DNA of 64,000 nucleotides from an uncultured Gemmatimonadales bacterium (GTDB taxonomy: Bacteria; Gemmatimonadota; Gemmatimonadetes; Gemmatimonadales; GWC2-71-9), in assembly GCA_963821525.1 (NCBI GenBank), contig CAWGED010000005.1, positions 864,001 through 928,000 on the forward strand, read 5' to 3'. Every line of letters starts with the position of its first letter. Within the stretch, counting starts at the first letter, position 1. Below are positions 15,755 to 45,843 of the stretch, piece after piece. A program made the position numbers and the translations under genes. Under the pieces are notes generated by a model. That model had not been told where the DNA came from. It was given only the letters and a program-made list of their open reading frames with translations, and did not search any database.

Positions 15755-15771
15755 CTCCAGACAACCGACCT

Positions 15772-18220: not shown

Positions 18221-18260
18221 ACCTTCAATAAACCCCCACCCCGTCCTACATTTCCCCACC

Positions 18261-24359: not shown

Positions 24360-24419
24360 GGAGTGAGGAGTAACAGCGATTCGGACTCCTCACTCCTTAC
24401 TCCTCACTCCTCACTCACG
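24339..24419. repeat. Inverted heptamer tracts (GGAGTRA)5 / (ACTCCTY)5 spanning the lspA stop and rluD start
   Basis: GGAGTAA GGAGTAA GGAGTGA GGAGTGA GGAGTAA - 11 nt - ACTCCTC ACTCCTT ACTCCTC ACTCCTC ACTCACG. Confidence 0.92.
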
Positions 24420-25410
24420 TTCACGGTCCTCAGCGAGTCGACCGAACGGCTCGACCGCTTCCTCGCCGATCAGCTCCAATTTTCCCGAACTCAGTCCGCC
24501 CGGCTCGATCGCCGCCGGCTCGGTTACCGTCGCCGGTAAGCCCGCGCGCGCGTCGCGCCTGCTGGAGCGCGGGGATCAGGTGGTAGTCACCTTCCCCGAT
24601 CAGGAGCCGCCCCGCACCATTCAGCCGGCTCAGATTCCTCTCTCGGTAGTCTTCGAAGACGAACACCTCGCCATCATCGACAAGCCCGCCGGGTTAGTGG
24701 TTCATCCCGCGCCGGGTCACTGGCAGGACACGCTGGTGAATGCCCTCGTGGCCCGCGGCACGACGCTCTCCAGCGGGGCCGAAGGGCGTCCCGGCATCGT
24801 GCATCGTCTCGACCGCGATACCTCGGGCCTCATGGTCGTTGCCAAGACCGAGCTGGCTCATCGCCGGCTCGGTGCGGCCCTCGCGGCCCGCCGGATCAAC
24901 CGGCACTATGCGGCGCTGGTCTGGGGACATCTCGACAGCGACCCGGTCGTGATCGAAGCACCGCTCGGGCGAAATCCCCGCGACCGCAAGCGCATGGCGG
25001 TCCTTCCCGAAGGCCGTCCCGCCCGAACCGACGCCTTTCCCGTTGCCCGACTTTCACTCGTGGACCTGGTGCGGCTCGAGCTGCATACCGGTCGCACTCA
25101 CCAGATCAGAGTTCATCTCGCTCACATCGGCCATCCCGTGGTGGGCGATCCGGTCTACACCGCGGGGGGTAGCCGCCGGATGTCGAGCGACCGGCCCGGT
25201 GCGGCGGCCCTGGAACGGCTCGCTCCCCGCCAGGCGCTGCACGCCGCCTACCTCGGTTTCCGCCATCCTGCGACCGGGGAAGCCCTCGAATTTGAGGCCG
25301 GATGGCCGGCCGACCTGCAGCCTTTGCTGGTTGCGGCGCTAGGGCCCGGAAATCCCGTTGTTAATTCGGATGCCCTTCGGTATCTTCGTTTCTTTAAAGC
25401 ACATGAGTGA
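24363..25410 (+). CDS. rluD: RluA/RluD-family pseudouridine synthase with S4 domain (frameshift near 24505)
   Basis: ERLDRFLA S4 domain, IDKPAGLVVHP, IVHRLDRDTSG, TGRTHQIRVH, QALHA. Confidence 0.92.
25358..25386 (+). promoter_or_regulatory. Putative sigma70-type promoter for the che-mgl cluster, inside the 3' end of rluD
   Basis: TTGTTA-N17-TATCTT in an AT-rich patch, 16 nt before the cheW ATG. Confidence 0.5.
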
Positions 25411-25839
25411 TGTTCAGAGGCTCAGACTTGTGGTCTTCCGGGTCGGCGAAATCATCTGCGCCGTGCCTGCGGCAATTGTTCGGGAGGTCATCGCCCAGCA
25501 GCCGGCAACCCGGATCCCTGGGGCCTCGGCCGAGGTGGACGGACTCTTCAACGTCCGCGGCACGCTTTTGACTGTCTTTGACGGTCGGCGGATCCTGGAA
25601 CGGCAGGGCTCGGCCGATCGAGGACGGGTCGGTCCTGGTAATCGAGACCAACGGTCGCACCGTCGGACTCGGAGTGGACGAGGTCCTGGATCTGGTGGAG
25701 GTGCCAGCGGACAGTCTCGATCAACGAGAGGCCCTCCCCGGAATAGATCCGCGCCTGGCCCGAGCGGTGGGCCGGGCTGGACGACCGGGTCTTTGCAGTG
25801 CTCGACACCGACGCGCTGCTCGCACCGCTTCTGACCTGA
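25403..25839 (+). CDS. cheW: Chemotaxis coupling protein CheW (frameshifted)
   Basis: LVVFRVG...VREVI...TRIPGA...GLFNVRG...VGLGVDEVLD. Confidence 0.85.
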
Positions 25840-25889
25840 CGAATCAGTCTTTTCAAAAGCCCAAACGCTGCTCGCAACCGGAGGATCGC

Positions 25890-26252
25890 GTGAGCCATAC
25901 GGTGCTGGTCTGCGATGATGCCATCTTCATGCGCACCATGATCTCGGACATCCTTGCCCAGGCGGGATTCGAGGTCGTGGGCGAGGCGGAGACGGGCGCG
26001 AGGCGGTGAGACGCTATCGCAAGCTCAAGCCCGACCTCGTCACGATGGACATCGTGATGCCGGACATGGGCGGCATCGATGCGGTACGCGAGATCTGCAA
26101 GGAGCGATCCCGACGCCAAGATCCTGATGTGCAGCGCGATGGGACAGCAGGCCCTCGTGGTCGAGGCGATCCAGGCGGGCGCCAAGGACTTCGTGGTGAA
26201 ACCGTTCCAGCCCTCCCGGGTGCTCGAGGCGGTACAGCGCGTGCTCGGCTGA
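25890..26252 (+). CDS. cheY: Single-domain response regulator CheY, Bacillus/Thermotoga-like (frameshifted)
   Basis: VLVCDDAIFMRTMI, PDLVTMDIVMP, MCSAMGQQALVVEAIQAGAKDFVVKPF; GGAGG RBS. Confidence 0.92.
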
Positions 26253-26256
26253 GTTC

Positions 26257-28123
26257 ATGGATCTATCGCGCTACGCCGCGCTCTTTCAGACGGAGAGCAG
26301 GGAACACCTGGGCAGTTGCGCTCAGGCCCTGCTGGAGTGGGAGCGCGACCTCAAGGCCACCGAGCCGGTCGTCACGGTCTTTCGCGGCATGCACACCTTC
26401 AAGGGCATGGCCGCGGCGATGGGGTTCAACCACCTCACCGAGCTGGCTCACCGCACCGAAACGCTGCTCGATGTGGTCCGGAGCGATCCCGGTTCCGCGT
26501 CGCGCGAGTTGCTGGACCTGCTCTTTCGAATCGTTGATGCGCTGGAAGCCGGGGTTCCAGAGGCGGTGTCCGGCGGCGACGCGAAGCTGGACTTCACGCC
26601 GCTGCTCGAGGAGCTCGACAATGCCTCGGCGCGCTTCGGCGCCGACCGGCAGCTGGGCCATTCCGGTGCGGGAGGATCGCCCGGCCCCGGTTGCGGCTGG
26701 AGGGCGGCTGGTGCGAGTCGTCATCCGCTCCGGTACGGCGATGCGCGGCGCTCGCGCGATGCTGGCGATCCGGAAGGCCGAGGCGCTGGGCAAGGTCAAC
26801 TCCATCCGGCCGCCGGCCAGCACGTTCGAGCAGGAGGAGTTCGACGGCAAGCTCTCCTTCCGTTTCGAGGGCAGGGCCAGCGACGCCTCGCTGATTGCCG
26901 CGGTGCAGTCCGCCGGGGACGTCGCCTCGGTCCAGGTGGGTGAGGAGACCGGCGGTCGACGAGCCGGGCCGCAAGGTCGAGCGCCGCCGCCAGATCCGGA
27001 TCGATCTCCGGCGGCTCGACGCGCTGATGAACCAGGTCGGCGAGCTGGTCGTCGCCAAGGGACGGCTCGAGCGAGCTCGCTGCCGTGAGCGACTCGCCGG
27101 ATCTCAAGGCGGTCGCCGCGCGCATCGGACGGGTGACCTCCGAGATGCACGGCGAGATCGTGCAGGCCCGGATGACTCCGGTGTGGCAGGTGTTCGATCG
27201 CTTCCCCCGGATGGTGCGGGACCTCTCGCGGCAGCTGGGCAAGCGGGTCGCGTTCGAGGTCGAGGGAGAAGAGATCGAGATGGATCGCGCGATCCTGGAC
27301 GAGATCGGGGATCCGCTGATTCACCTGCTGCGGAACGCGGTGGACCACGGCATCGAGTCCACCGCCGAGCGGAAGAAGCGCAACAAGCCGGCTGAAGGCC
27401 GGATCCTGTTAAGCGCGATCCGGGACCGGACCAGCGTCGCCATCCGGGTGAAGGACGACGGGCAGGGCATCGACCGGCAGAAGGTTCTCGCCAAGGCCGT
27501 GAAGGAAGGGCACGTCCCTTCGCGGCACCACGACCTTGACCGACGACCAGCTGCTCCGCGTACTGGGCCGCCCGGGCTTCAGCACCGCGCGCTCGGTTAC
27601 CGACGTGTCGGGCCGCGGGGTCGGCATGGATGCCGTGCTGTCCAAGGTCCGGGCGCTGGGAGGCTCGGTCGAGCTGGAAACGGCCGCGGGCGAGGGCTCG
27701 ACCTTCACGATGCGGCTCCCGCTGACGCTGGCGATCGTGCGGGCCCTGCTCGCTCGCGTAGGCGATGAGCGCTACGCGGTGCCACTCGCCGGGGTGGCCG
27801 AAACGGTGGAGTTCAACCCGGTGCTGGTCGCGTCGCTCGAGGGCAAGGAGGCGTTCGTGTTGCGCCAGGAGCTCCTGCCCACGGTGCGACTGCGGGAGCG
27901 GCTGGGGGTAATCGGCGCCCGGCCGGTCGGGAAGGCGCCGACCATCATTCTGCAGGTCGGAGAGCGCCGTTGCGCGCTGGTAGTTGATGCCCTGGTCGGG
28001 CAGCAGGAGATCGTGGTAGAGCCGTTCGATGCGCCGAAGGGGATGCTGCCGATTTTTACCGGTGCCACAATCCTGGGTGACGGCGTGCCGGCCCTGATTG
28101 TGGATCCGGCCGCCCTGGTCTGA
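26257..28123 (+). CDS. cheA: Chemotaxis histidine kinase CheA (frameshifted)
   Basis: P1 FRGMHTFKGMA; P2-like ARAMLAIRKAEALG...EEFDG; LDALMNQVGELV; HLLRNAVDHGIE; DDGQGID; VSGRGVGMD; C-terminal CheW-like P5. Confidence 0.95.
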
Positions 28124-28132
28124 GAGGCCCGC

Positions 28133-28754
28133 ATGGACGACGTACGCGAGTTGCATGAGCTGCAGCGCGACGCGCTCAGGGAAGTCGCCAACATCGGCGC
28201 CGGCCATGCCGCGACCGCCCTGTCCCAGCTCACCAATCGTACGATCATGATCAGCGTGCCCGAGGTGAACATCTCCCGGCTCGAAGAGGTGCCGGAGATC
28301 CTGGGGCAAGCCGACGACGTGGTGGCCGCCGTCCTGATGCACATGATGGGCGACCTCACCGGCCGTACGCTGGTCCTCTTCCCCGATCCCTCGGCCAAGG
28401 TGCTCTGCGACATACTGCTCCGCCGGAAGCTCGGCACCACCGAGACCTACGAGCGAGATGGAACAGTCGGGACTCAAGGAGGTAGGAAACATCCTGACCA
28501 GCGCCTACATGAACGCGCTGAGCGACTTCATGGGCATGATGCTGGTCCCGTCGGTTCCCAGCCTCGCCATCGATCTGGCGGGAGCCGTCCTGACCTCCAC
28601 CTACATGAATTTCGGCTACGACCGCGACTTCGTCTTCTGTGTCGAGACCCAGTTCCTGTTCGAGGATCCGGCACTCAAGCTCCGTGGTCACTTCCTGCTG
28701 TTGCCCGATCTCGCGTCGCTTCGGGCAATTTTCGACGCGATCCGCCTGAGCTGA
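28133..28754 (+). CDS. cheC: CheY-P phosphatase CheC (frameshift near 28455)
   Basis: Two ExxN sites: DALREVANIGAGHAATALS and LKEVGNILTSAY. Confidence 0.92.
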
Positions 28755-28761
28755 GGCAGCC

Positions 28762-31464
28762 GTGACGGGGCCGGCTCTGTCGGAACGGGACCTCGCCGTC
28801 ATCCGATCCTTCGCACGCCGCATCGATCCGTCCGATGCCGGCGCCCACAACAACCTCGGCGTCCTCTACTACCAGAAGGGCCTGACCGCCGAGGCCATCA
28901 GCTGTTTCCTGCGTGCGCTCGAGCTGGACCCCAGCATGCAGGTCGCCAAGGACAACCTCGAGATCGCCTACCACGCCACCGGCTACTACGACAAGCGGGT
29001 GGCGGAGCTGCGCGACCGGCTGGCCCGCGCATCCCGCAGGACCGGGACGCGCGCTGGGAGCTGGGCCGGACCTACGCCTCGCTGGGCCATTTCGAAGAGG
29101 CGATCGCCGAATTCGAGACCCTGCTCGCCCGGCAGCCGGACGACGTCGCCGGCGTTACTGCAGATCGGCCTGGCCGAGAAGGCACGGGGCGATCTGGACG
29201 CGGCCACCGACTGCCTTCGGCCAGGCGCGTCGCGCACGACCCGAGCGTCCGGTCGTCCTCTTCTACTTCGGCGAGGTCGCTCTACAACCGCGGCCTCAAC
29301 GAGCCGGCGCGCGCGGCGCTGGAGGAGGCCGTCGCCCGGAACCCCGACCACGCCGACGCCTACTACCTCCTGGCCTTCGTCTACGGCGACATGGGCGATC
29401 ACGAGAGGCCCGGGCCGCGACCAAGAAAGCGACCGCAGCTCAATCCCACCTTCGCCCGCGCCCAGAGCAATCTCTCGCTGAATCGCTAGCGCGGGCGGCG
29501 CGACGCTCCCGGGCCGCAGCAGATGCCGCGGCCCAAGGTCGAGTCGAGGGTGGGGCGCTCGCGCACTTCAACCTGGGACTCGCATTCCGGCAGAAGGGCT
29601 ACTACGTCGAGGCGTTGCGCGAGTACAAGCTGGCCCTCGAGGCGGGCGAGGATCCGCCGGCTGGTGCTCCAGGCGATGGCGGAGGTGCACCTGCTGCGGC
29701 GCGACGTCTCCGCGGCGCTGGAGCTGTACGCGGCGCTGGTCGCGCGAGGACCCCGAGTCACCCAAGCTGTGGAATGAGCGCGGGGTCTGTCTGCAGCATG
29801 CCGGAAGGCGCGACCGAGGCCGGTGCCGCGTACAACAGGCCGCAGTCAACATCGATCCCGACTACGCGCTGGCCTGGAACAACCTCGGGGTACTCCGTGG
29901 CCCAGAGACCCGAAGACGAAGAGGCGCTCGAGGCCTTCCACCGGGCGCTGATGATCCGCCCCGACCTCGTCGTGGCCCGGCTCAACCTCGCGCTGGCTAC
30001 TCTTCCATCGCCGCCGGCTCCAGCTGTCGCTGGAGGCGTATCGCCAGGTGCTGGAGACCACGCCGACCAATGCCGTCGCCTGGAACGGGGTCGGGCTGGT
30101 GCTGGTTGAGCTCAAGCGCTTCGAGGATGCGCGGAACGCGTTCGGCCGTGCGGTAGACGCCGATCCGGACAGCGCATCGGCGCACTACAACCTGAGCTTC
30201 GCGCTCAGCAATCTGGGCGACTTCGACGGCGCGCTCCGCGCGACCAAGCGGCGCGCTCGAGCTCGAGCCGTTCTACGTCGCGCAGAAGTATGTCCTGTCG
30301 ATCGATCTCCAGTACGAGAATCCGGACGATCTCCATCGTCCCCGAGATCTCGGCCGACGTGTCATCGGACCTGGCCGAGCCGATTTCGCATTCGACACCC
30401 GGCTGCTGGATCGCATCTTCGACGAGCTGCAGCCCGCCGCGAAGCCCGCGCCGGCCCCCTCAGTGGATGATCCACTCGCCCTGGCCGCCGATTTCGTGGC
30501 GAAGGGACTGCTCGAGCTGGCCACAGCCCACATCGACCGCGCGCTGCAGCAAGGGCGCACCCCGTGCCCGCGCCACCACGCTCATGGGGCAGGTGTTCGC
30601 CCGGCGTGGCCTCCACGGCGAGGCATTGGAGCGGTTCCGGGAGGCGCTGATGCTGGAGCCGGGCGATCCCGACGCCACCCTTGGTGAGGTCCGCGCACTG
30701 CTCGCGCTCGGCCGGTCCGCCGAAGCCGGCGAGCACGTCGAGGACCTGGTCACCATGATGCCGCGCGACGTGGAAGTTCTGGTCGAGCGCGGCCCGGGTG
30801 CGATTGGAAGGTGACCAGCCGGAATCCGCCGGCGAGCTGGTCCGGCGTGCCCAGCAGCTCGCGCCGGGACGGGCCGATCTCTTCCAGTTGCAGGCGAAGG
30901 TCTGCGGCAAGCTGGGCGATATCCCCGGTGCGGTCGAGGCCTGCCAGGTCGCGCTCCAGCTCGACGGCACGCTCGCGCAGGTCTGGCACGACCTGGGCCG
31001 ACTCGAGGAAGCCCGGGAGAACTGCCGTGGCGGCGAAAGGTCGCCTACGAGCGAGGCGCTCGACCTCCTGCCCACTTTCATGGAAGCCGCGCTGGCCCTG
31101 GCCGATCTGGTGCGCCGGAGCGAGTCCCCCGCGGCCGCGGTAGACATCCTGGTCGAGATGCTGATGACGGAGCCGTGGGACCTCGATGCGCTCGCTGCTG
31201 CTGGGCCGCTGCCTGCTGGATGACGGCCGGCCGGAGCGGTCGATCGAGGCGCTCCAGCGTCTGCTCAAGTTCGATCCCGACAACGAATCCGCGCTGTTCC
31301 ACCTGGGCGTGGCCCTGGCCCGCATGCGGCAGTACGCGGACGCGGTTCACGCGTGGGAGCGGGTGATCCAGATCGATCCCGGCGGGCCCTATGCCCAGGC
31401 GGCGCGCAGCCACGCGCGGTCGGCGCGAGACCTCAAGCATATCTTCGCGGCGGGAGCGGCCTGA
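28762..31464 (+). CDS. Large cytoplasmic TPR protein, about 900 aa (many frameshifts)
   Basis: Repeated TPR units across frames: AHNNLGVLYYQKG, AHFNLGLAFRQKG, AWNGVGLVL, AHYNLSFALSNLG, ALFHLGVALARM. Confidence 0.85.
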
Positions 31465-31467
31465 GTC

Positions 31468-32618
31468 ATGGCGATCGAAGGGCCGCTCAAGGAACTGAGC
31501 ATCCACGATGTCTGCCAGCTCCTTGACCTGAGCCGGAAGACCGGCATTCTCCGCGTCACCTCCGAGCTCCGGCAGAACGCGGGCACCGTCTTCTTCGAAG
31601 AGGGTGTCGTGGTCGGCGCCGAAATCCGCAGCAACCCTCATCCGCTGGGCCGCCTCCTCTACGCCGCGGGCAAGATCACCGAGGAAGAGCTCGCGCGCGC
31701 GAGGGGAGCACAGGCGGCGGGTGACGGCCGCAGGCTCGGCGAGATCCTGGTGAGCCAGAGCGCCATCTCGCCGCGCGAGCTCGCGCGTCACGTGAGGCAG
31801 CAGATCGAAGAAGTCGTGTTCGAGCTGATGGGCTGGTCGGAGGGATACTTCTCGTTCGAGGAGGGCAGAGGAGGGGAATGGCCCACCGAGGCCACGATCC
31901 GGATTCCCACCTCGCTCCTTCTGATGGAGGCGGCCCGCCGGATCGATGAGTGGTCCCGGATCGAAAAGAAGATCTCCCACCTCGGCATCGTGCCTCGCTT
32001 GGGGCAGGAGCCCGCCGCGGACGGTCCGCTCGATCTCTTGCCCACCGAATGGGAAGTCCTCTCAATCGTGGACGGGAACCGCACCATTCGAGACGTCGCG
32101 GCGACACTGGGCCGCTCCGAGTTCGACGTGGCCAAAACGGTCTTCGGCCTGGCCTCCGCCGGGACTCCTCATGCTGGAGGATCCGTCCCGCCGCGCTATT
32201 GAAGAAACCTCGGACGGCGACCTCGCGATGCTCATCGGCGAAGCGGACTCCCACATGGATCAGCAAGACGCCGACGCGGCAGTAGCCGTCGCGGAAGTGG
32301 CGGTGAGTCGCCATCCCGATCAGCCTCTGGCGTACCTCGCGTACGGGCGCGCGCTGCTCACGGCCCAGCGCTACGCCGAGGCCACCGATGCGCTGTGGTA
32401 TGCCGTCGAACTGGATCCGCTATCCACTCCAGGCACCGCCTGCTCGGGCTTGAGTCTGATTGCGATGGGCCGCTTCCAGGAGGCCTCGGAGGTGTGGGAC
32501 CGTTGGCGCCGGCTGGGGCCGATGGCGCCGCGAGGAGTCCGCTCAGCTGCCCGCGGTAGACCGCCTGCGGCAGGCCGCGCTCACGATCGACAACGCACTG
32601 CGAGGTTCCCGTGATTGA
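31468..32618 (+). CDS. DUF4388 (PATAN-like) protein with MshEN-like motif and C-terminal TPRs (frameshifted)
   Basis: MAIEGPLKELSIHDVCQLLDLSRKTGIL, WSEGYFSFE, LLMEAARRIDEW; TPR LAYLAYGRALL. Confidence 0.85.
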
Positions 32619-33439
32619 AGACATCCGGGCCCTCACCGCCCAATTGGCGGCGGACCCGACCAGTCTGGTCTTTCTTCGCCTGGGCGAAGCGCTCCGGGGG
32701 CGAGGGCCAGCTCGAGGCGGCGCAGAAGGTGGCGCTGACCGGGCTCAGCCGTTACCCGCACCTGCCCGACGCTCACGATCTCTACGCCCGCATCCTCGCC
32801 GACCGGCAGGACTACGCCAATGCGTTCGACGAGTGGGACATGGTCCTCCGCATCGCGCCCAACCACGTCGGCGCGAACAAGGGCATCGGCTTCCTCTACT
32901 ACCGGGCCGGCGATCGGGAGAATGCCATCCGGCATCTCCAGCTGGCTCTGTCGGCCGACCCCGGCGATGACGGGCTGCGTACCGCGATCGACCGGCTGGG
33001 TGGAGGCGGTGAGGTATGGGATGCCCCTGAAGCGGCGCCACCGGAGATTACCGAGCCCCTGCCACAGCGCAGTCCGCCTGCTCCCGATCCCTTCTTCGGC
33101 TTCGAAGGCAGTGTGAACCGGCTGCTCCTCGCGAGCGCGGATGGCCTGAGGCTGGGCGGCGGACTCGCCAGCACTGCCGGCGAGGATGTGAGCGAGGTCG
33201 CCGCGGCACTCGTATCCGGCGCCGCGCGCGAAGCGACCCGGGCGGCGAAGCTGCTCGACCTCGGCGAATGGCGCCACGTCACCGTCGAATGCGGAGAGCT
33301 GAGCTTCTGCCTGGTCCAGCCGACGTCGGATACCGGGCTGATCGCGGCGATGGACACGGCGCTTCCCGTCGGCCAGCTCCACTTCCTCGCCGAGCGGGCC
33401 AGCAAGGCCGCGACCTCCTGGCTGGAGCGGGTGCGATGA
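32611..33439 (+). CDS. TPR plus Roadblock/LC7 fusion protein (frameshift near 32700)
   Basis: SLVFLRLGEALR...TPRs; C-terminal LLLASADGLRL...AAALVSGAAREATRAAKLLDLGEWRHVTVEC roadblock pattern. Confidence 0.8.
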
Positions 33440-33788
33440 TGCGCGACTACAAGGCCCTGCTCGAGCCGCTCACCCGGCTGCGTGGTGTGCGTGGCGCCAT
33501 GGTCGTCGCGGCCGATGACGGTGTCGTCGTGGTGGACGCGTTGATGGATGGCATGAAAGGCAAGGCTCTCGCGGCCCTCGCTGCGGCCCTCGCCAGCCGG
33601 ATCGTGGATCTCGAGCTACCAGGGCCTCGTTCGGCCCCGCCAGGTTCATCCAGCTGCAGGCGGCGGAAGGCAGCCTGCTGCTGGTCCCCGCGTCGGAGGA
33701 GCTGCTCCTGGTGACGGTGACCGGCCGTGATGTCCCGCTGGGACTCACCCGGCTCGAGATGCTCAAGGCCGCGGAGCGAATGCGCTGA
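33436..33788 (+). CDS. Roadblock/LC7 protein, MglB/MglC-like (frameshifted)
   Basis: LRGVRGAMVVAADDGVVV...ALAALAA...; C-terminal LLLVTVTGRDVPLGLTRLEMLKAAERMR*. Confidence 0.8.
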
Positions 33789-34250
33789 TGCGGGCCTTGG
33801 AACCCTGGGTAGTCCGGCCACTTGCAGGACTTCGTGTCGGAATCATCCGCGCGATTGACCCTGCTCATGACGACGTCCGGCCAGGTGGTGGCGCAACACG
33901 GATTCACCGGAGCGCTCGACCTGATGTCGGCGGCGGCGCTGGGGGCTGCCATCATCTCGTCGTCGAGCGAAATCGCCCGGGTCATGGATTGGCCGCCCTT
34001 CCGGAATCTGGTGCATCAGGGCCAGCGGCAGGCGCATTATCTGGCCTGGTTCGACACTCCCAGAGGGCGCTGGATTGCGTTCGTGGTCTTCGGCACGGAA
34101 ACCAATCTGGGCCTGGTGCAAGTCTTCTTCGAGCAAATGGTGGAAGAGCTTGCGGCCGCTGCTCCGGTAGAGTCGGCCCCCAAGGAAGTGCTTGCTGTGG
34201 ATTTCGAGCGGGAACTCAACGCGAGCCTGCGGGCTCTTTTCGGACGCTAG
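33788..34250 (+). CDS. mglB: Roadblock/LC7 MglB-type GAP (frameshift near 33820)
   Basis: LTLLMTTSGQVVAQHG...AAALGAAII...FRNLVHQG...VVFGTETNLGLVQ; lies immediately upstream of mglA. Confidence 0.8.
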
Positions 34251-34256
34251 GATTTC

Positions 34257-34859
34257 ATGTCGCTGGTCAACTTCACGACGCGTGAGATCACCTGCAAGAT
34301 CGTCTACTACGGACCGGGGCGGTCCGGGAAGACGACCAACTTGCAGTACATCTACGGCCGGGTTCCCGACTCGCGCCGGGGCCGCATGGTTTCTCTCGCG
34401 ACCCAGACCGACCGTACTCTCTTCTTCGATTTCCTGCCCCTCGACCTCGGCGTCATCTCCGGGTTCACAACCCGGTTCCAGCTCTATACCGTCCCGGGAC
34501 AGGTCTACTACAATGCCACGCGGAAGCTGGTGCTCCAGGGGACCGACGGTGTGGTCTTCGTGGCGGACAGCCAGGCCCGGCGATTGGACGACAATCTGGA
34601 GAGCCTGCAGAATCTGCAGGCCAACCTGCTGGCGCAGGGAGTGGAGGTGCGCCAGTTCCCCATGGTGCTCCAGTACAACAAGCAGGACCTGCCGCAGGAC
34701 CTGGTCCTCACGTCGAGCGATATGGACGAATCGCTCAATTTCTTCGGGTTGAAGAGCTTCCCCGCCGATGCGGTGCGCGGGACAGGAGTGTTCGAGACCC
34801 TGAAGGGGATTTCAGAGCTGGTGCTCAAGCGCCTGGCCGCAGGGAGTTCGGTGACGTGA
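34257..34859 (+). CDS. mglA: MglA-family small Ras-like GTPase
   Basis: [41 protein letters not shown]. Confidence 0.95.
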
Positions 34860-36888
34860 GTACTCCGCTGAACCCGCGGTACCGCTTCGACAACTACGTT
34901 GTGGGCGCAGCGAACAAGCTTGCCGCGACCGCCGCCCGCGCCGTGGCCGAGTCCCGGGCGCGGTCTACAACCCGCTCTTCGTCTACGCCGGATCCGGGTT
35001 GGGCAAGACCCACCTGCTGATGGCGATCGGGCACGCCGCCGCAGGAAATCAATCCGCAGGTGACGGTCGAGTATCTCACCCTCGACGACTTCGTCGAAGC
35101 CTTCCATACGGCCATCGCCGCAGGACAGGGAGACGCCTACCGCCGCCGCTACACCGAAGTCGGCGTGCTGCTGGTGGACGATGTGCAGTTCCTCACTCAC
35201 CGGCGCGAAATGCAGGCGGAGCTGCTCCGCCTCACCAACACGATGCTGTCCTCCGGCCGGCAAATCGTGCTCTCGAGCGATCGCCCGCCCAACGAGATCG
35301 AGGCGCTGGATGAGCGCCTGATCCAGCGTTTCGCCGGCGGGCTCGTGATCGACATCTCCGCACCCGATTTCGAAACCCGGGTCGCCATTCTTCGGAGACA
35401 GGCGGAGGAGCGCAAGGCGCAGGTTGACGCCAGCGTGATCGAGACCGTCGCACAACTGCCGCTCGGCAGCGTGCGGGAGCTGATCGGCGCTCTGAACCGG
35501 TTGATCGCGTTCCAGGCGGTGAGCGACAAGCCGCTGGACCCGCAGCAGGCCAGGGCAGTGCTGGGTCGAGTTGGTGTCGTGAAGCAGCCGAGTCCTGCTG
35601 CCGCGGAGGGACCTCCGAGTCCCGCTCAATCATGCCAGCCTGGAGAGTCACCTTCCCCTCGAACCGGAAGCCGTTCCGCCGCCCGAGGAGGAACCGGTGC
35701 TCTCGGGCGATGAGTTCGGCTCGTTCCTCTCCGAGATTCAGTCCGCGGTGGCGCGACAGGTCGAGCCGTGGCGGGTGAGGGTCAACGAGGCGATCCTCTT
35801 CTGGGACGGCGAAGGCTACCGGGTAGACCGGCTGCGCCAGATTCTTGGCCGAGGCATCGCCGGAGAACCCGGAAGCGGCGCTTGGCGCCTACATCGAAGA
35901 CATCGAGCGGCTCAAGCTGCTGCAGGCCGAGATGCAGGAGCTCGATCCCAGCGCCGCGGGCACCGCGCTGTTTCGCGATCCGGACCGGCTCTCCGAAGCA
36001 CTCACCGAAACCGATCGAGCACGCCAGGGCGCGAGCCCTCCGCCGGGACCCTCGCCGCTCTGGACGATGGAATCGTTCATCGAGTCGGCGGGCAACCGGA
36101 TGTCGGTCCGCTCGGCTCAGGCTGTCGTCGCCGAACCCGGAGCGACTTACAACCCGCTGGTAATCACCGGTAGCAGCGGAGTGGGGAAGACCCACCTGCT
36201 GCATGCGATCGGCAATGCCCTCGCCGCCAAGCCCAGGGAAGTCGTCGCCTGCCTCGGCACCCAGGACTTCGTCGATGATCTCATCAAGGCCATCGACAAA
36301 GACCGGGTGAACTGGTGGCGGATCCGCTATCGCCGCATCACCGCGCTGCTCCTCGACGACATCCACCTGTTGTCGGGGAAGGAGCGCTCGCAGGAAGAGT
36401 TGTTCTGGCTCTTCAATCTCCTGCACGAGGGCGGCAAGCAGATGGTCTTCACCTCGGCCCTGCCGCTGCAGGAGATCGAGGGCCTCGAACCACGTCTGCA
36501 GACCAGGCTGAACGGTGGGCTGGTGCTGGAACTCCCCGCGCCCGATCGGGAAGTCCGGGCCGCGATCATCGCCCGTCTGCTCGTCGAGCGAAAGCTGCCC
36601 GCCGACCAGGAGCTGGCGGACTATCTGGCGGGCAGGCCCGCCGACTCGGTGCGTAGTCTGCCCGAGATGCTCCAGCGGGTGCTGCACGAGGCGGATGAGC
36701 GTCACGGCAAGGTGAGTGCCGCCCTCGCGCGTGAAGTGCTGGAGGGCAGTCCTGCTGCCCCGTTGCGGCGCAGCACCGGCTATCGCACCAGCGGCGTGCT
36801 GTCGCCCACGGCGGGGCTCCGCAGCCGGGAGAAGATGGTGTGGGACTGGCCATCGCTGACCGATCGTGTGATTGAGGATCTGCGCTGA
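34856..36888 (+). CDS. Tandem DnaA/Hda-type AAA+ domain protein lacking DnaA domains I and IV (frameshifted)
   Basis: Module 1: [59 protein letters not shown]. Module 2: [45 protein letters not shown]. Confidence 0.88.
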
Positions 36889-38505
36889 TGGCCATCAAGG
36901 GCAGCCTCAAAGAGGCGAGTCTCCCGGACGTTCTTCAGCTCCTCGCGCTGGGGAAGAAGAGTGGCTGCCTGGCCGTGGCTGACCGGCAGAACTTCGGCTA
37001 CGTGTATTTCGACGAGGGACGGATCTGCTACGCGTCCATCGTGAACCGGCGCGACCGGATCGGCGACCTCCTGGTGAAGAACGGGCGGGTCAGTCCGGAG
37101 CAGCTGGAGCAGGCGATCGCGCTGCAGGAGCAACGCGCGGGACAGCAAGCTGGGCGAGTTGCTGGTTGAAATCAGCGCGGTGACGCGAAAAGACCTCGAA
37201 GACTACATGCGGATCCAGATCGAGGAGGCGGTCTACTATCTCTTCACCTGGACCCAGGGGACTTTCAACTTCGAGGCCGGCATGCGGCCGGATCAGGACT
37301 TCCTGGTCCGGATCAACCCCGAGTCGCTGCTCCTCGAGGGCGCGCGCCGGGTCGACGAGTGGAGTCTCATCGAAAAGAAGATCCCCAGCTTCGACCTCAT
37401 CTTCGCCGTCGATCGGGAGCACGTCTCCGACACTGACGTGGAGCTCGAACAGGCACAGGAACGCCTCCTCGGTCTCATCGACGGGCAGCGCGACGTGCAG
37501 GATCTGATCGAGGAGTCGGGCCTGGTCGAGTTCGAGGTGGGCAAGGCACTGTACGGCCTGGTGACGGCGGGATTCGTGCGTCGGGTGGGAACTTCGGCGA
37601 CTCCGGCGCAGCCCCAGGTGAACGAGACCCGGGTCGAGGAGCACCGGAACCTCGGCGTCGCCTTTTACAAGACCGGCATGCTCGAAGAGGCCTCGCGGGA
37701 ATTCCGCAGAGTCGCCGATCTGCGCGCCGCCGACCCCAGCGCTCCGTTCTACCTCGGCCTCATCGCGCTGCGTCAGGCTCGGTGGGAAGACGCGGTCGAA
37801 GCGCTGACGGCGACGCTTGAGAAGGCCGGCTCTCGGCCCGCCGTGCTCTACAACCTGGCCTTTGCTCTCGAGCAGCTCGGCCGGTTGCCCGAGGCGGAGA
37901 CCGCGTACGCCGACGCGGTGAGCAAGTCGCGCGACGATGCCCGGCTGATGCTGGGATGGGGAGTCGTGGCGCTCAAGCGTAACGATTCGGAAGTCGCCAC
38001 CAACCGTCTGGCCCGGGCTCGAGAGCTCTGGGGTGAACGCCCCGTTCCGCCTACCTGGTATTGGGCGATGGCGCTCGCCCTCGCGGGCCAGGCCGATCTC
38101 AACGAAGCGCTCAAGATCGCGAAAGAAGGCGTCGCCGCGTTCCCCTCGGACGCCGTGCTCCGCAACAACCTCGCGGTCCTCCTGGAAATGAGCGGGGATT
38201 TGCCCGGCGCCGAAATGCTTCTGCGCGGGGCCTTGTCCGAGGACCCGACGCTTCCGCAGATCTCGAAGAACCTGGGCGACTTGTTCTACCGTGCGGGCCG
38301 CTACGACGACGCGTTCGAAGCCTACGAGCGCGCCGCCAAGCTGAGCCCCGAGTTGGGCGACGACCTGTACTTCAAGCTGGGCAACATCGCCTTCAAGCGA
38401 CGCGACCGGGAGCGTGCCCGGGTCTGCTGGCAGCGGGTGACCGAGCTCAATCCGGCCCATCAGCTCGCGCGGGCCAACCTCGACACTCTGGAAACCAGCG
38501 CGTGA
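36888..38505 (+). CDS. DUF4388 protein with MshEN-like motifs and C-terminal TPRs (frameshift near 37145)
   Basis: [47 protein letters not shown]; several TPRs (EHRNLGVAFYKTG, VLYNLAFALEQLG, ISKNLGDLFYRAG). Confidence 0.88.
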
Positions 38506-39326
38506 CCGCAGAGCAGGATGCCGCTTTCACCGCTCTTGCGCAGCGCATCGCGGGGCGGGCCGGACTCGACGTCGGAGCTTACAAGGATCGCTGCCTCCGG
38601 CGCCGGATCGCCGTTCGCATGCGCGCCTGCGGCGTCCACACCTACTCGGACTATCTCGGCGAGCTCGACCGGCGTCCCGATGAGATCGACCGGCTCCTCG
38701 ATACCATCACCATCAACGTCACCAAGTTCTACCGCAACCCGGAGACCTGGTCCTGGCTCGAGCGAAACCTGCTGCAGGCGCTGGTCTCCGCCCGGCGGGG
38801 ACGGGTACGGGTCTGGAGCGCAGGCTGCGCTTCGGGTGAGGAACCCTATACCATCGCGATGGTGCTCGCTCAGGCCTGCGCCGCAGCCGGTCGCGAGGAC
38901 TGGATCGACGATGTCCGGATCGATGCTACCGATATCGACCGGGAGTCTCTCGACCGGGCGCGCGCCGCCCGGTACCACGAGCGGGTCTTCAGCGAGACGC
39001 CGCCTGCCTTGGTGAAGCGATACTGCCGTCAGATCGCGCCCGAAGAGTTCGAAGTGGATTCCCGTCTTCGTGCCGTCGTCGAGATCCGCCGGCTGGACCT
39101 GCTGCGGGAGTCCCCCGCCTCGCCCCAGTACGATCTCATCTTTTGCCGCAACGTGGTCATCTATTTCGATCGCCGGACCCAGGAACGTCTGATGGGCACC
39201 TTCTTCGACGCCCTGGTTCCCGGTGGCCACCTGATTCTGGGGAAAGTGGAGACCATCTTCGGACCGATCCGCGACCAGATCACTCTGCTCGAGCCTCGTG
39301 AACGCGTCTACCGGAAGCCGGTCTAG
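38502..39326 (+). CDS. cheR: Protein-glutamate O-methyltransferase CheR
   Basis: TINVTKFYRN, VWSAGCASGEEPYTIAM, ATDID, YDLIFCRNVVIYFD. Confidence 0.95.
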   Translation: MTAEQDAAFTALAQRIAGRAGLDVGAYKDRCLRRRIAVRMRACGVHTYSDYLGELDRRPDEIDRLLDTITINVTKFYRNPETWSWLERNLLQALVSARRGRVRVWSAGCASGEEPYTIAMVLAQACAAAGREDWIDDVRIDATDIDRESLDRARAARYHERVFSETPPALVKRYCRQIAPEEFEVDSRLRAVVEIRRLDLLRESPASPQYDLIFCRNVVIYFDRRTQERLMGTFFDALVPGGHLILGKVETIFGPIRDQITLLEPRERVYRKPV

Positions 39327-39813
39327 ATGGCGGGCGAGCAGATGGTGCGGGTTGCCGAGATCAAGGCCGCTACGGGAGACCAGATCCTGTGTACCCTCGG
39401 GCTGGGCAGTTGCGTCGGCATCGCCCTCTACGATTCGACCGCCCGGGTCGGCGGGCTCGCGCACATTCTTCTTCCTTCGCTCTCGCTGAGCCGTAACAGT
39501 CAGGCTCCAGGCCGGTTCCCGCAGTCTGCAGTGCCCGCACTCATCGCGGAGATGTCGGCGCTTGGTGCCGATCGGCGCCGACTCTTTGCGCGCCTGGTGG
39601 GAGGGGCGAGCATGTTCGCCAACCTCAACGCGCCCGGCTCCATCCAGATGGGCGACCGCAACGTCGTGGCGTGTCGCGAGGTGCTGAGCGCCCACGGCAT
39701 TCCGGTTGTGGCCGAGGCGGTGGGCGGAGGGCCAGGGGCGTTCGATGTGGTTTCACACCGCCGATGGGAAAATCGAGGTGCGTTCGGTCGGGAGCCCGGT
39801 CTATGAGCTTTGA
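39327..39813 (+). CDS. cheD: Chemoreceptor glutamine deamidase CheD (frameshift near 3' end)
   Basis: TLGLGSCVGIALYD...GGLAHILLP, LVGGASMF, MGDRNV. Confidence 0.93.
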
Positions 39814-40872
39814 CCTGCCCTCGGTCCTGGTGGTGGATGACAGCGCGTTCTTCCGGCGCATGATCTCCGAGATCGTCGCCGGTTCCGGCGCAGTTCCGCG
39901 TGGTGGGCACCGCGGCCAATGGAATGGAAGCGGTGCAGAAAGTCCACGAGCTTCACCCCGATCTGGTCACGATGGATCTGGAGATGCCTCAGCTCGACGG
40001 ACTCGGCGCGATCGGGTACATCATGTCGGAAGCCCCACGGCCCATCGTGGTCGTGAGCTCGCACGCGGGCGCCGGCACGTACCGGCTCGATCCGGGCTCT
40101 CGAGCTCGGTGCCGTCGAATTGGTGGCGAAGGAGGACGAGCAGGGCAGGGCGTCGGCGTTGCGAATCGCCCCCCGGCTGCTCGACGCGCTGCGTGCCGCT
40201 CGCGCGGCCGATATCGGGCGCCTGCCGGTTCTCGCCCGGCCGGCTACGGGTCGAGGGGCGGGCTCACGTCAGGGCGCCCAACGAGGCGCGCCGCACGCTC
40301 GCCATTGCCGCCTCAACCGGCGGCCCTCGGGCTCTGGCCGAATTGTTGCCCCAGATTGACCACCGGACAGGAAGCGGCGGTGCTGATTGTGCAACACATG
40401 CCGCGGGGATTCACCCGAAGCCTTGCCGAGCGGCTGGACTCGCAAAGCCGGCTCGCGGTGGTCGAGGCGGAGCAGGACGCTCCCGTTCGCGCCGATACCG
40501 CATACGTGGCTCCCGGCGATTATCATATGCGAATAACCTCCACCGCGACCGGCCTCAGAATCGTTCTCGATCAGGGGCCGACAATCTGGGGAGTTCGCCC
40601 GGCGGCTGATCCGCTGTTCTATTCGGTCGCCGAGTGTTTCGGTGCGGCCGCGGTCGGCGTGGTGCTGACCGGGCTGGGACGGGATGGAGCAGCCGGACTT
40701 CGTGCAATGCACGATGCCGGCGGCATCGGCATCGCGCAGGATCGGGAAACCGCCACGATTTACGGGATGCCCGGCGCCGCCCTGGCCGGCGGAGGAGCCG
40801 ACTACGTTCTTGGGCTCGGTCAGATCGCGGAGCACGCGAACCAGGATTCTCCGAGAAAGGCCGCGGCGGTGA
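39803..40872 (+). CDS. cheB: Chemotaxis methylesterase CheB, REC plus esterase (frameshifted)
   Basis: VLVVDDSAFFR, PDLVTMDLEMP; catalytic ASTGG, QHMP and LTGLGRDG. Confidence 0.93.
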
Positions 40873-41298
40873 AGCAAGCATTGCTCCTGGTCTCTGCCGG
40901 AGGGCGGCAACTCGCCTTCCGGATGGCCGACGTGATCGAGGTGCAGGAGGGTGGAGAGGTGCACCGGGTTCCTGCCGGCGCTCCTGCGCTCGCGCGGAGT
41001 CACCACGGTTCGGGGCCGGTTGGTGCCGCAGGTGCACCTCGGCGCGTTGCTCGACCAGGGTACCTATCCCCCGGAACCCTGTGCGACCGTCGTCGTGGCG
41101 ACCACCGACACCGGTTTGGTCGCGTTCGAAGTGGATGACGCGGACGCGCACCCCGAGATCGAGATTCTTCCGGCTCCGGAAGACGAGAGACTCTCGTGGG
41201 TAAGTGGGGTGCTGCGTCAGCAAGAAAGGTGGGTGCCCGTCTTGAATCTGACAGTCCTGGAGGAACGGCTGCGGACCAGCGAGGTAAGCCACGCATGA
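40869..41298 (+). CDS. cheW: Divergent CheW-domain protein (frameshifted)
   Basis: LLVSAGGRQLAFRMADVIEV...RGVTTVRGRLVPQVHL...VAFEVDD...VPVLNL. Confidence 0.75.
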
Positions 41299-41755
41299 CC
41301 GACGACGAACTGCAATTCGTGATCTTTCAGGTCGGTTCCCAGGCTCTGGCGCTCAGCATCTTTCAGGTCGAGCGCATTCTTCGCTGGGAGCAGCCCGCGG
41401 CGTTGCCCAACGCCCCGGCGTTCCTCGAGGGCGTGCTGCCCTACGGCGACGGCGTGGTCGCCGTGGTGGATCTCCGCAAGCGCCTCGACGCTACCGGCGA
41501 CGCAGCAGGAGGAAACCCGGGTCATGGTGCTGGAGCTGGAAGATCAGCGGGTCGGCATCGTCGTCGATGCGGTGCAGCGAGGTGGTCAGGGTCGATGCGC
41601 GTACCATCACCCCGCCGCCGCCCATGGTGCGGGGCCTGGCCGCCAAGTACATCACCGGCATCCTCAGCCAGCCGGACCGGACGGTCGTTGTGCTCAACGC
41701 GGGCAAGCTCCTCAACTCGAAGGAACGGCTCGCCCTGACCGGAGCGTTGGCCTGA
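41295..41755 (+). CDS. cheW: CheW (frameshifted)
   Basis: QFVIFQVG...VERIL...LPNAPAFLEGV...VGIVVDAV...YITGI. Confidence 0.85.
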
Positions 41756-41759
41756 GCTC

Positions 41760-42632
41760 ATGACCGATTCGCTGATTGCGACGCTGCGCAGCCAGTTCCA
41801 GGCGATCTCGCTCCGGCTCGACCAGGCCGGCTCCAATGCGGAGCGAGAGGCGGCCAAGCGGGAAATCATCGCCTACTTCAAGAAGGTGGATTCCACACTG
41901 GGCGAGCTCACCCAGTTGAAGGAAGACATCCGCGGACTGGTTGACCGCTACAAGCAGCTCCAGGCGTCGACCGATACCGCCCAGGCGCCGCAGTTCACCG
42001 GCGCCCGGCCGATGGTGCATGCCGACCACATCGGCGCCTCGACCTTCATCGAAAAGGGATGGAGCCTCATCTCCCTCGGTGATTACGCCGGGGCGATTCA
42101 GTCGCTCGACAAGGCGCTCCAGCTTTCACCGGCGGATGTCCAGGCCCAGTCGCTGCTCGGCTGGGCCCAGATGCTCCACGAGGATTACGACGACGCGCTG
42201 GCCACCTTCTCGAAAGTCTTGATGAAGGAGCCGGCGAATTCCCTGGCCCGCATCAACGTGGGCTACATCTGCCTCAAGAAGCGGATCTTCGGAGAGGCGA
42301 TCGAGCACCTGTCCAAGGCCATCCGGCTCGACAATGACCGGAAAGCCACGCTGTACGCCCACTACTATCTCGGGCTGGTCTACCTCGAGCGGGAGATGTT
42401 CGAGGACGCCCAGACCTTCTTTCAGAAGACCCTCAACCTCGGTCCCAATCTGATCGAGGCCTACTACGAGCTGGGCCGCGCTTCCTGGTTCATGGGAGAC
42501 AAGACCGCCGCTAGCGGCGCCTGGGAAGAGGGCTTCAAGGCCAACAAGTTCAATCCGTGGGGCAAACGCTGTAAGGAAATGCTCGATCTCGTCGCCTCCG
42601 GAGGAGAGCCGCCGCGCACGTCCTCCGCCTGA
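41760..42632 (+). CDS. Coiled-coil plus TPR protein
   Basis: N-terminal helical/coiled-coil segment followed by about five TPRs (ARINVGYICLKK, AHYYLGLVYLER, AYYELGRA). Confidence 0.85.
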   Translation: MTDSLIATLRSQFQAISLRLDQAGSNAEREAAKREIIAYFKKVDSTLGELTQLKEDIRGLVDRYKQLQASTDTAQAPQFTGARPMVHADHIGASTFIEKGWSLISLGDYAGAIQSLDKALQLSPADVQAQSLLGWAQMLHEDYDDALATFSKVLMKEPANSLARINVGYICLKKRIFGEAIEHLSKAIRLDNDRKATLYAHYYLGLVYLEREMFEDAQTFFQKTLNLGPNLIEAYYELGRASWFMGDKTAASGAWEEGFKANKFNPWGKRCKEMLDLVASGGEPPRTSSA

Positions 42633-42643
42633 TCTATCTGCTG

Positions 42644-43512
42644 GTGCAGGCCGCAGACTCGCTGACTCACGCCATGGTCGGTCGGGTCAGAGTCGTGGCT
42701 CGGGAGAAAGATCTCGCTCTCGGCATTCGCCTCGCCGAATCGGTGGACCGCCCGTTCGCCTGGCCGGGCCTCGGCCGCCGCGCACCGCCTCCCTTTACTC
42801 TGATTCTGGCTGCCGACTCGGCGACCATGTCCCGCATCGCCAGCGGTCGTGCGCCGGGCTGGGGAGCCGGGATCACTCTGCCTTCGGCTCGCACCATCGT
42901 TCTGCGCAGCGACCTCGGCGGTCTCGACCAGACGCTGCGCCATGAAGTGGCCCATCTGGCCCTGCACGATGCAGTCCCGGGGAGAGTCCCACTCTGGTTC
43001 GATGAGGGATATGCCTCGCTGGCTTCGGGAGAGTTCGAGCGGCTGATCACGCTCCAGCTCAACCTTTCGGTGGTTGCGAGGGCGGCTGCCGTCGCTTCGG
43101 GAGCTCGATAGTGACCTGAGGGGTTCGGCCCGCACCGCCGATGCCGCCTATGGTCTCGCCGCTTCAGCGGTGGCCGAGATCGCGCGGCATCCCGCGCCGG
43201 GTGGGCTGGAGCGATTGTTCAGCCGTATGGCCGCAGGCGATGATTTCGAGCAGAGTCTCATCGCGGCAACCGGGCTGACCCTCCGACAGATTCGAGAAGT
43301 CGTGGCAGGCAGGCGTTCGCCGGCGTTACGGTTTCATCGCCTGGTTGCTCGCGGGCGGCATTTGGGCTGTGGTGGCGGCTGTCCTTGGTGTCCTCGTATG
43401 GCTGCGCCGCCGCAGCGACCGACCCCGAAGGCTGGCCCTGGACCAGGGCTGGGAGATCGCTCCCCCCGATCCGCCGCCTCCGCCCGTTGACCCGGTCGAT
43501 CCGAAGCAGTAA
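42644..43512 (+). CDS. Peptidase MA-like metallohydrolase with a C-terminal TM (frameshifted; start uncertain)
   Basis: LRHEVAHL...VPLWFDEGYA motif; C-terminal hydrophobic helix. Confidence 0.75.
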
Positions 43513-43763: not shown

Positions 43764-43838
43764 GGGCGAATAGCTCAGCTGGTCCAGAGCGCCTGCCTTA
43801 CACGCAGGATGTCGGGGGTTCGAATCCCTCTTCGCCCA
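43764..43838 (+). tRNA. tRNA-Val(TAC)
   Basis: GGGCGAA/TTCGCCC acceptor stem, anticodon arm CCTGC-CTTACAC-GCAGG, GGTTCGAATCC T arm; CCA not encoded. Confidence 0.95.
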
Positions 43839-45750: not shown

Positions 45751-45825
45751 GGGGCTGTAGCTCAGCTTGGTTAGAGTGCCGCACTGTCACTGCGGAGGTC
45801 GCGGGTTCGAGCCCCGTCAGCCCCG
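45751..45825 (+). tRNA. tRNA-Asp(GTC)
   Basis: GGGGCTG/CAGCCCC acceptor stem, anticodon arm CCGCA-CTGTCAC-TGCGG, GGTTCGAGCCC T arm. Confidence 0.95.
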
Positions 45826-45843
45826 CTCCTTTGGGTTCGAGTC

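Follow-up and report, generated by a model that had tools for sequence, protein, structure and literature searches.

Two DnaA-type ATPase modules in a Gemmatimonadales chemosensory operon: a conserved non-initiator with a predicted PATAN-MshEN-TPR partner

Background

The AAA+ ATPase of DnaA opens the replication origin and, in the form of Hda, turns initiation off. What two such modules, joined in one protein without a DNA-binding domain, are doing in an operon of chemosensory genes is the question raised by a stretch of 64,000 nucleotides from an uncultured Gemmatimonadales bacterium (assembly GCA_963821525.1, contig CAWGED010000005.1, positions 864,001 to 928,000 of the forward strand), here called the window. 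In it, the gene of this tandem ATPase stands between mglA and the gene of DUF4388b, a protein with a PATAN domain (=DUF4388), an MshEN-type motif for cyclic di-GMP (c-di-GMP) and tetratricopeptide repeats (TPRs). The original prediction, made from the letters of the window, saw either an initiator fold repurposed for signalling or a covalent dimer that caps or inhibits the true DnaA. Our analysis reveals that the protein is real, conserved and not an initiator, and we see a slightly better than even chance that it is a non-replicative, ATP-switched adaptor acting with DUF4388b, a regulator that probably senses c-di-GMP and serves polarity or pili.

A literature search that covered few subscription papers found no publication on this protein or on the archaeal fusion proteins described below. 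The occurrence of mglA near PATAN genes has been noted, and a G. aurantiaca neighbourhood is tabulated as 'PATAN>MglA>-PATAN>' in a supplement in which the ATPase is unnamed (PMC4316618, supplement file 3).

Results

The window gene is assembled as five frame pieces. Alignment to two genomes of the same genus places four indels at about 34953 (-1), 35039 (+1), 35617/8 (+1) and 35845 (+1), which agrees in number with the sites originally guessed (near 34950, 35050, 35690 and 35850) but puts the third at 35617/8 and not at 35690. Short-read contigs support all four corrections, each in at least three of four runs, and restore all four frames. Compared with the same-genus genome G001, the window assembly shows 73 non-triplet indels within 20 kb, with most neighbouring genes broken too, and the frameshifts are therefore assembly errors. 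G001 encodes a single open reading frame (ORF) of 676 amino acids (aa), the 347-aa C-terminal piece being 93% identical; 33 proteins fall into its cluster at 90%, and of the 15 that are listed, 10 likewise measure 676 aa. The intact ORF in relatives, together with the short-read corrections, rules out two genes or a pseudogene. Both overlaps described from the letters are seen in the window, that of the start with the mglA stop (GTGA, 34856-34859) and that of the stop with the next start (TGATG, 36886-36890). Contigs from one RNA library cover the gene at a flat depth of about 5x, which we do not count as evidence of transcription. Those homologous loci that bear names belong to Gemmatimonadales or Gemmatimonadota.

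Residues are numbered as in the G001 protein, and conservation was counted in an alignment of 75 full-length homologues and 64 canonical DnaAs, from which 12 partial, frameshifted or unpublished loci and exact duplicates were dropped. Pfam Bac_DnaA covers both modules, and the motifs named in the original prediction are all present: Walker A (GSGLGKT, GSSGVGKT), Walker B (LLVDD, LLLDD), the arginine-finger regions RLIQRF and RLQTRL, sensor II (SVRE, SVRS) and a sensor I that reads SDRPP in module 1 and a degenerate TSALP in module 2. The Walker A lysine is found in 75/75 homologues in either module, as is the DD of Walker B in module 1; the arginine finger is kept in 67/75 and 74/75 (modules 1 and 2), sensor II in 71/75 and 70/75, and sensor I in 71/75 in module 1, while its aspartate occurs in only 17/75 in module 2. 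As DnaA domain III, module 1 is complete and module 2 misses sensor I only. Module 1 is without the AID-1 and H-motif residues of DnaA. The residues with which Bacillus subtilis DnaA handles single-stranded DNA (ssDNA) and the DnaA-trio (E183, N187, I190, I193, R202, K222, E228) are mostly retained in module 2 and partly lost in module 1, the equivalent of N187 being E or D in both.

The AlphaFold2 model (mean predicted local distance difference test, pLDDT, 83; predicted template modelling score, pTM, 0.51) places module 1 at 1-237 and module 2 at 396-630; between them lie a disordered linker (239-284) and a helical middle domain (286-391), and a tail of low confidence ends the chain. The best structural match is DnaA domain III (B. 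subtilis 8bv3: Z 29.6, root-mean-square deviation, rmsd, 1.4 over 235 residues, 43% identity), followed by Hda, DnaC and IstB. In sequence the modules share 36.7% identity with one another and 37-39% with the DnaA of their own lineage, no more than with that of E. coli; with Hda they share about 20%. For the middle domain, Pfam, PDB sequences and the Atlas offer no convincing match.

The canonical dnaA of the genome lies elsewhere, on contig C4, where the sole Bac_DnaA_C match (G000:C4:234198-234404) stands beside rnpA/yidD-type ORFs; this rules out the tandem ATPase as the only dnaA. Each of 20 relatives examined also carries a dnaA that includes the domain IV motif, and 13 canonical DnaAs in our tree form a separate clade with support 100. 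The tandem ATPase has no domain IV (TIGR00362 aligns only to profile positions 102-339 of 437) and no domain I or II, since it starts 4 residues before the domain III motif with the mglA stop at most 11 nt away in 75/75. An N-terminal beta-clamp-binding motif, searched with sequence patterns, occurs in 0/75 homologues, and all five NCBIfam models for Hda/HdaA stay below their cut-off (TIGR03420 178.9 vs 194.8, two modules summed). Profile, start-position and pattern tests thus bear out the absence of domain I, domain IV and clamp motif stated in the original prediction, and none of the findings named there as speaking against it (separate genes in homologues, a domain IV, no other dnaA) was made. 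In databases these proteins go under 'chromosomal replication initiator protein DnaA' or 'DnaA/Hda family protein', in part because their two modules, summed, score 489 on TIGR00362 and so pass its cut-off of 344.

The gene neighbourhood was compared at 37 near loci, the window included, 34 of which have downstream DNA, and at 20 of the 24 distant loci located. DUF4388b directly follows the ATPase gene in 34/34 and 20/20 of these, with a gap of -1 to +1 nt in 72/75. The mglA gene is just upstream of the ATPase at 37/37 near loci, but adjacent at only 9/20 distant ones, and it is retained at the locus after loss of the ATPase in six genomes (G031, G035, G235, G245, G134, G186); the link to mglA is weaker than originally proposed. 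The steady partner is the downstream PATAN-MshEN-TPR gene, not mglA. In family f7 all ten loci read rluA > ATPase > DUF4388b > peptidase. DUF4388b reaches 131.1 bits against PF14332 (cut-off 25) and 49.4 against the c-di-GMP motif model NF053729 (cut-off 38), the latter cut-off also being reached by DUF4388a, the second protein of this kind in the operon, with 38.1.

A physical contact with this partner is predicted by the co-folding that the original prediction had proposed. Residues 281-676 were folded with the full partner and with three controls, using self-made alignments and a mark that is reached by 116/157 solved complexes and 2/215 mismatched pairs. The pair scored 0.72 and the best control 0.01; the runs share at least 68% of contacts, and the partner has a pLDDT of at least 82. 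In the predicted complex, K659-W664 of the tail lie in the TPR groove of the partner (387-493), and the last helix together with module-2 residues 411-432 and 552-558 contacts the start of the PATAN domain and the first TPRs. The model supports binding of the tail to the TPR groove. Among 53 partners, which as kin are non-independent, conservation is higher at the TPR positions with a predicted contact than at the remaining ones (0.63 vs 0.56, p 0.036), and the same holds for polar positions (0.67 vs 0.53, p 0.007). Four groove residues (N426, N427, Q457, N461) are retained in 7/7 aligned partners from genomes with a remnant of the ATPase gene, whereas G134, where the tail is lost, has other residues at three of these sites.

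The distribution of the family was determined with a profile of residues 284-400 in 301 genomes of the phylum, superseding an over-strict search at E 1e-60 (170/301). Four unpublished genomes (G081, G119, G175 and G200) are part of these counts; our other claims are independent of them. In one locus scan, 64 of the 80 listed loci were canonical dnaA, and in the other all 80 matches lay within the AAA+ part only. The profile matches 201/301 genomes, almost always in a single copy: 121/125 in family f1, 55/70 in f2, 3/3 in f3, 4/6 in f4, 1/1 in f5, 4/4 in f8 and 12/48 in f7. It finds no match in 100/301, single-contig genomes among them, including f6 (0/23) and f9-f12 (0/20). A tree of 103 rows, inferred with a quick method after dropping partial module-2 rows, shows module 1 (support 98) and module 2 (91) each as one group apart from Gemmatimonadota DnaA (100). 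The order within module 1 roughly follows the family codes, with some copies on long branches. Separate module groups and a module 1 that roughly tracks the families fit one ancient duplication followed by vertical descent.

DUF4388b was sought in 72 of the 100 genomes without a profile match, along with eight positive controls, and was not found in f6 (0/11), the f7 negatives (0/22), f9 (0/2) or f10 (0/11). In three f2 genera the partner is present without its 53-residue MshEN insert, and the ATPase gene has disappeared from those loci, often leaving mglA and che genes behind. Nine genomes of three genera have lost both ATPase modules and keep a frame of about 60-75 aa that ends at the start of the partner. 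These mini-ORF remnants, found in 9/12 intervals of genomes missed by the profile, comprise the first helix of the middle domain and the C-terminal tail. The other three intervals hold nothing (G134, where the insert is kept), one degenerate module and the tail (G221), or both modules without the repeat (G198). Standing directly upstream of DUF4388b (L291, L292, L293, L294, L295, L296, L297, L298, L301), the mini-ORFs are easily overlooked in annotation.

Where the ATPase gene survives, the two modules fare differently. Module 2 is dispensable, being absent at 5/20 distant loci (G076, G128, G206, G290, G300), so that the doubling stressed in the original prediction is not an essential feature. 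In 15 module-2 rows from divergent genomes the Walker A lysine is left in 4/15 and sensor II in 0/15; equivalents of R281, R285, L290, K223 (as R), R245 and E249 are present in 15/15, and the arginine-finger face is thus invariant where the ATP site has decayed. The Walker A lysine of divergent module-1 rows is kept in 17/17. Interface residues between DnaA protomers include R281, R285, R227 of AID-1 and L290 of AID-2 (PMC5742627). Module 2 may thus donate an arginine finger, probably to a module 1, in cis or in trans, and conceivably to the true DnaA.

Searched against 1.84 billion representatives, the profile gave 460 matches at E 0.001. Of the 149 listed matches that were rescored, 26 carry at least three copies of the repeat, spaced about 95-110 aa; they include a Thermoplasmata protein with DUF835, a Ca. 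Wallbacteria protein and proteins that end in Bac_DnaA and zinc ribbons. The last group (the P0126 family) comprises 24 proteins, and its sole taxon label, on one cluster member, is Thermoplasmata archaeon. A reverse profile built solely from 68 repeats of these long proteins matches 73/75 tandem proteins (median 28 bits), while the best unrelated frame in the genome scores 11.6; hhalign relates the two with a probability of 98% and E 1.6e-13. Judged from these profile comparisons, the middle domain is one copy of the repeat found in the archaeal repeat-DnaA fusions. The N-terminal domain of the fusions has no relevant Pfam match and weakly matches DUF4388 (hhalign E 0.027-0.038, a score reached by 1/30 shuffles); its look-alikes in the Atlas are DUF2226 (0.86) and PF14332 (0.83), against a mark of 0.9, and its best structural Z is 5.4.

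In a tree of 55 rows (48 long or redundant rows dropped), a single clade of archaeal and bacterial ATPases is not rejected (approximately unbiased test, p-AU 0.396), and grouping with the DnaA of their own lineage has support 11. Independent recruitment is possible because the archaeal AAA+ domain shares 64% identity with a Bacillaceae DnaA. The same repeat occurs without an ATPase in P0068, P0113, P0069, P0075, P0092, P0117 and other proteins of up to 3143 aa, mostly without a Pfam match; those with names come from Thermoplasmata (a DUF835 fusion) and Ca. Wallbacteria. The paralogue pairs P0070/P0244 and P0248/P0229, each without and with the ATPase, may adjoin on one contig, given their equal longest contigs (13582, 28206). 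DUF835 is treated as an inactive KaiC domain in a paper whose passages on it do not mention DnaA (PMC5847659).

The features of the gene and its operon are collected in Table 1.

Table 1. The tandem ATPase and its operon in the window (gene names assigned as stated)
Feature	Position	Strand	Remarks
Upstream operon part: cheW, cheY, cheA, cheC-like, 892-aa TPR gene	25403..31464	+	names except TPR from translations by eye
DUF4388a: second PATAN + MshEN-motif + TPR protein	31468..32615	+	
Three roadblock/MglB-like genes	32596..34250	+	first one with N-terminal TPRs
mglA-type small GTPase	34257..34859	+	stop overlaps ATPase start
Tandem DnaA-domain-III ATPase gene	34856..36888	+	676 aa in relatives; frame broken by four 1-bp assembly errors in window
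AAA+ module 1 (residues 1-237)	34856..35566	+	complete ATP site: K51, D108/D109, sensor I D142, sensor II R207; arginine finger R158
Pro/Glu-rich disordered linker (residues 238-284)	35567..35708	+	7-118 aa across 75 homologues
Anchor helix (residues 285-303)	35709..35765	+	also present in mini-ORF remnants
One helical repeat unit (residues ~304-391)	35766..36030	+	homologous to the repeats, ~98-110 aa each, in long archaeal-type proteins; without Pfam family
AAA+ module 2 (residues 396-630)	36043..36747	+	Walker A/B, R546/R550, R599 intact in window; sensor I degenerate
Conserved C-terminal tail (residues 650-676)	36805..36885	+	E658, W664 in 75/75; predicted to lie in the DUF4388b TPR groove
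Partner DUF4388b: PATAN/DUF4388 + MshEN-type c-di-GMP motif + TPRs	36888..38505	+	538 aa in G001; indel near 37136
Downstream part: cheR, cheD, cheB, two cheW, 290-aa TPR gene, Peptidase_MA_2 gene	38505..43510	+	

The Peptidase_MA_2 gene (42644-43510) keeps its place downstream of DUF4388b down to the minimal f7 loci and is possibly a third core member. No chemoreceptor gene was recognised in the che operon (25403-41755); five matches to methyl-accepting chemotaxis proteins (MCPs) lie on other contigs. The source genome has 6 matches to T2SSE-family ATPases, 13 to GGDEF and the 5 to MCP, and none to flagellin, at a completeness of 81%. Upstream of the operon runs a housekeeping series (9949-25410) with tilS, ftsH, folP, a DAC-domain gene, a TMEM260-like gene, a gene for a pyridoxal-phosphate-binding protein, divIVA, a tRNA synthetase gene, lspA and rluA. 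Downstream, tRNA-Val (43764-43838) and tRNA-Asp (45751-45826) flank a TPR gene, followed by an rsmH/ftsL/ftsI-like cell-division cluster named from translations by eye. At other loci, a third DUF4388 protein of 972 aa stands outside the operon (L300, G026:C7:160863), and an Acidimicrobiia-labelled contig (L078, CAXMUQ010000073.1) carries a Gemmatimonadales operon with a DUF4388b nested among f1, probably a binning error.

Discussion

The signalling role foreseen for a repurposed initiator fold in these soil bacteria is supported by genomic context, by conservation and by the predicted tail-TPR contact. The adaptor that we favour would work in three steps. Its C-terminal tail would bind the TPR groove of the partner, with the last helix and the nucleotide-side surface of module 2 touching the PATAN domain, as the model predicts and co-retention supports. 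Module 1 would be the working ATP site, and module 2, to judge from its conservation, would act much as a built-in Hda, its main part being to supply a module 1 with an arginine finger; the result would be a short capped unit and not a filament anchored on DNA boxes. The nucleotide state and c-di-GMP on the MshEN motif of the partner may then jointly gate the PATAN domain, which serves cyanobacteria as an output domain towards the type IV pilus motor. The Che and MglA/B genes would be a usual but separable input, and the pilus motor or cell pole is suggested as final target by context. PATAN binds PilB1 and PilC in Synechocystis (10.1101/2021.06.11.447907); because of this, and of the pilus-type ATPases, GGDEF and MCP genes of the genome, an output to the pilus or polarity machinery seems plausible.

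Several observations weigh against this explanation. Joint loss of the ATPase and the MshEN insert is a single event, since the insert-less partners (7/7) form one clade (support 99), and G134 is without the ATPase yet retains the insert. TPR-peptide complexes are common among solved structures, so the co-fold may have passed on a generic groove, and the anchor helix lies outside its confident interface. Neither ATP site is universally required: besides the loci without module 2, module 1 has lost arginines in the three f8 rows. With its pTM of 0.51, the monomer model does not demonstrate a contact between the modules. Finally, PilM is present in 37/40 genomes irrespective of the ATPase, and the distribution gives no link to a pilus output.

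Among the alternatives, a sensor that feeds into the PATAN protein is unlikely; it would still bind single-stranded nucleic acid or a dinucleotide through the initiator-specific motif (ISM). The pocket of B. subtilis DnaA is built from R202/E228 of one protomer and N187/E183 of the next (PMC10721633). Module 2 keeps the equivalents of I190 (I/V, 66/75), I193 (I/L, 67/75), R202 (R, 73/75), K222 (K/R, 65/75) and E228 (75/75), module 1 has an acid at E183 in 71/75, and 20 archaeal fusion domains keep nearly all pocket residues (N187 19/20, R206 20/20). Yet the acid at N187 in both modules, the H/N at I190 and the E at the B motif of module 1 do not suit such a site, a DNA-binding anchor is missing, and the same residues also make protomer contacts.

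Regulation of the true DnaA, which would tie polarity signalling to initiation, appears quite improbable; the finger of module 2 would act on DnaA-bound ATP as Hda does, or the protein would cap DnaA filaments. Module 2 does retain R281 (74/75), R285 (74/75), R227 of AID-1 (69/75) and L290 of AID-2 (73/75), and in structural comparison DnaA comes first (Z 28.5-29.6), with Hda next (Z 21.0, rmsd 5.0, 223 aligned). The covalent dimer of the original prediction nevertheless finds no specific support: the protein has no clamp motif, replication genes are missing at the locus, the profile is silent in a third of the phylum genomes (100/301), single-contig ones included, and the modules are no closer to the DnaA of their own lineage than to that of E. 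coli. Moreover, module 2 is missing or decayed in many lineages, its AID-1 position is W in 10/15 divergent rows, and selection has retained a non-catalytic remnant.

That the tandem ATPase is a direct effector or scaffold of MglA in a Myxococcus-like polarity module is, to us, similarly improbable. It would explain mglA directly upstream at every near locus and the short gap to its stop, and an unlinked mglA paralogue is found in all 7 ATPase-bearing f7 genomes tested; however, mglA is not at the locus in 11/20 distant cases, and it outlives the ATPase in the six genomes named above. A second, unlinked mglA (G001:C175:27417-27893 and equivalents) occurs in most genomes tested and is the sole mglA found in f7. 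Least probable of all is that the modules are slowly decaying passengers of a helix and tail that serve as structural cofactor of the TPR protein, as the remnants in three genera, the single-module and degenerate forms and the long branches of some copies might suggest, given a Walker A lysine conserved in both modules (75/75) and in divergent module-1 rows (17/17), and a family present in 121/125 f1 genomes.

Among known systems, DnaA domain III (B. subtilis 8bv3/8btg, T. maritima 2z4r, A. aeolicus 1l8q/2hcb/3r8f) shares with the protein its fold and the residues of ATP site and arginine finger. The tandem ATPase differs in having two modules, an added repeat and tail, an altered ssDNA pocket and no domain I, II or IV, and in sitting in a signalling operon of a genome with a separate canonical dnaA. 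Like Hda, it is a DnaA-type AAA+ protein without a DNA-binding domain, and its module 2 seems to resemble an arginine-finger donor; unlike Hda, it keeps the GKT of Walker A intact, possesses the two ISM helices and has no clamp motif, and the identity is only about 20%. The partner recalls the cyanobacterial PatA-type PATAN regulators (PixE and PixG, which bind PilB1/PilC) in its PATAN/DUF4388 domain with a two-clip helical insert and in its chemosensory operon, but it has TPRs and no receiver domain, and the ATPase predicted to bind it is of the DnaA type, not the PilB type. We place the tandem ATPase in the DnaA-type AAA+ class as a variant of its own, for which one specific partner is predicted.

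The Frz-MglA/MglB polarity module of Myxococcus joins a Che pathway, MglA, roadblock proteins and the TPR effector SgmX. The Gemmatimonadales locus brings Che, MglA, roadblock and TPR proteins together as well, though in one operon, and the Myxococcus literature searched names no DnaA-type ATPase. The P0126-family fusions share with the tandem ATPase the helical repeat right before DnaA domain III and the lack of a domain IV motif (0/20); they differ in having 5-8 detected repeats, one AAA+ module nearer to canonical DnaA, C-terminal zinc ribbons (19/20), an N-terminal domain weakly like PATAN/DUF2226 and no tail motif. We tentatively propose, as a considerably less certain extension, a signalling module common to Gemmatimonadota and Thermoplasmata, in which a DnaA ATPase core without the DNA-box domain is combined with a special helical repeat and a PATAN-like output, fused in archaea and, in bacteria, latched in trans through tail and TPRs under the gate of c-di-GMP.

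Conclusions

Counts of dnaA in Gemmatimonadota and Thermoplasmata may be inflated by these proteins. With a named partner, a predicted docking tail of 25 residues and natural deletion variants, the proposed contact can be tested with purified proteins. A lineage-wide copy of the DnaA ATPase that is tied to a c-di-GMP/PATAN regulator would put this ATPase to work outside DNA metabolism and, if the common module suggested for Gemmatimonadota and Thermoplasmata is true, the engine of DnaA would have a second, non-replicative role in two domains of life.

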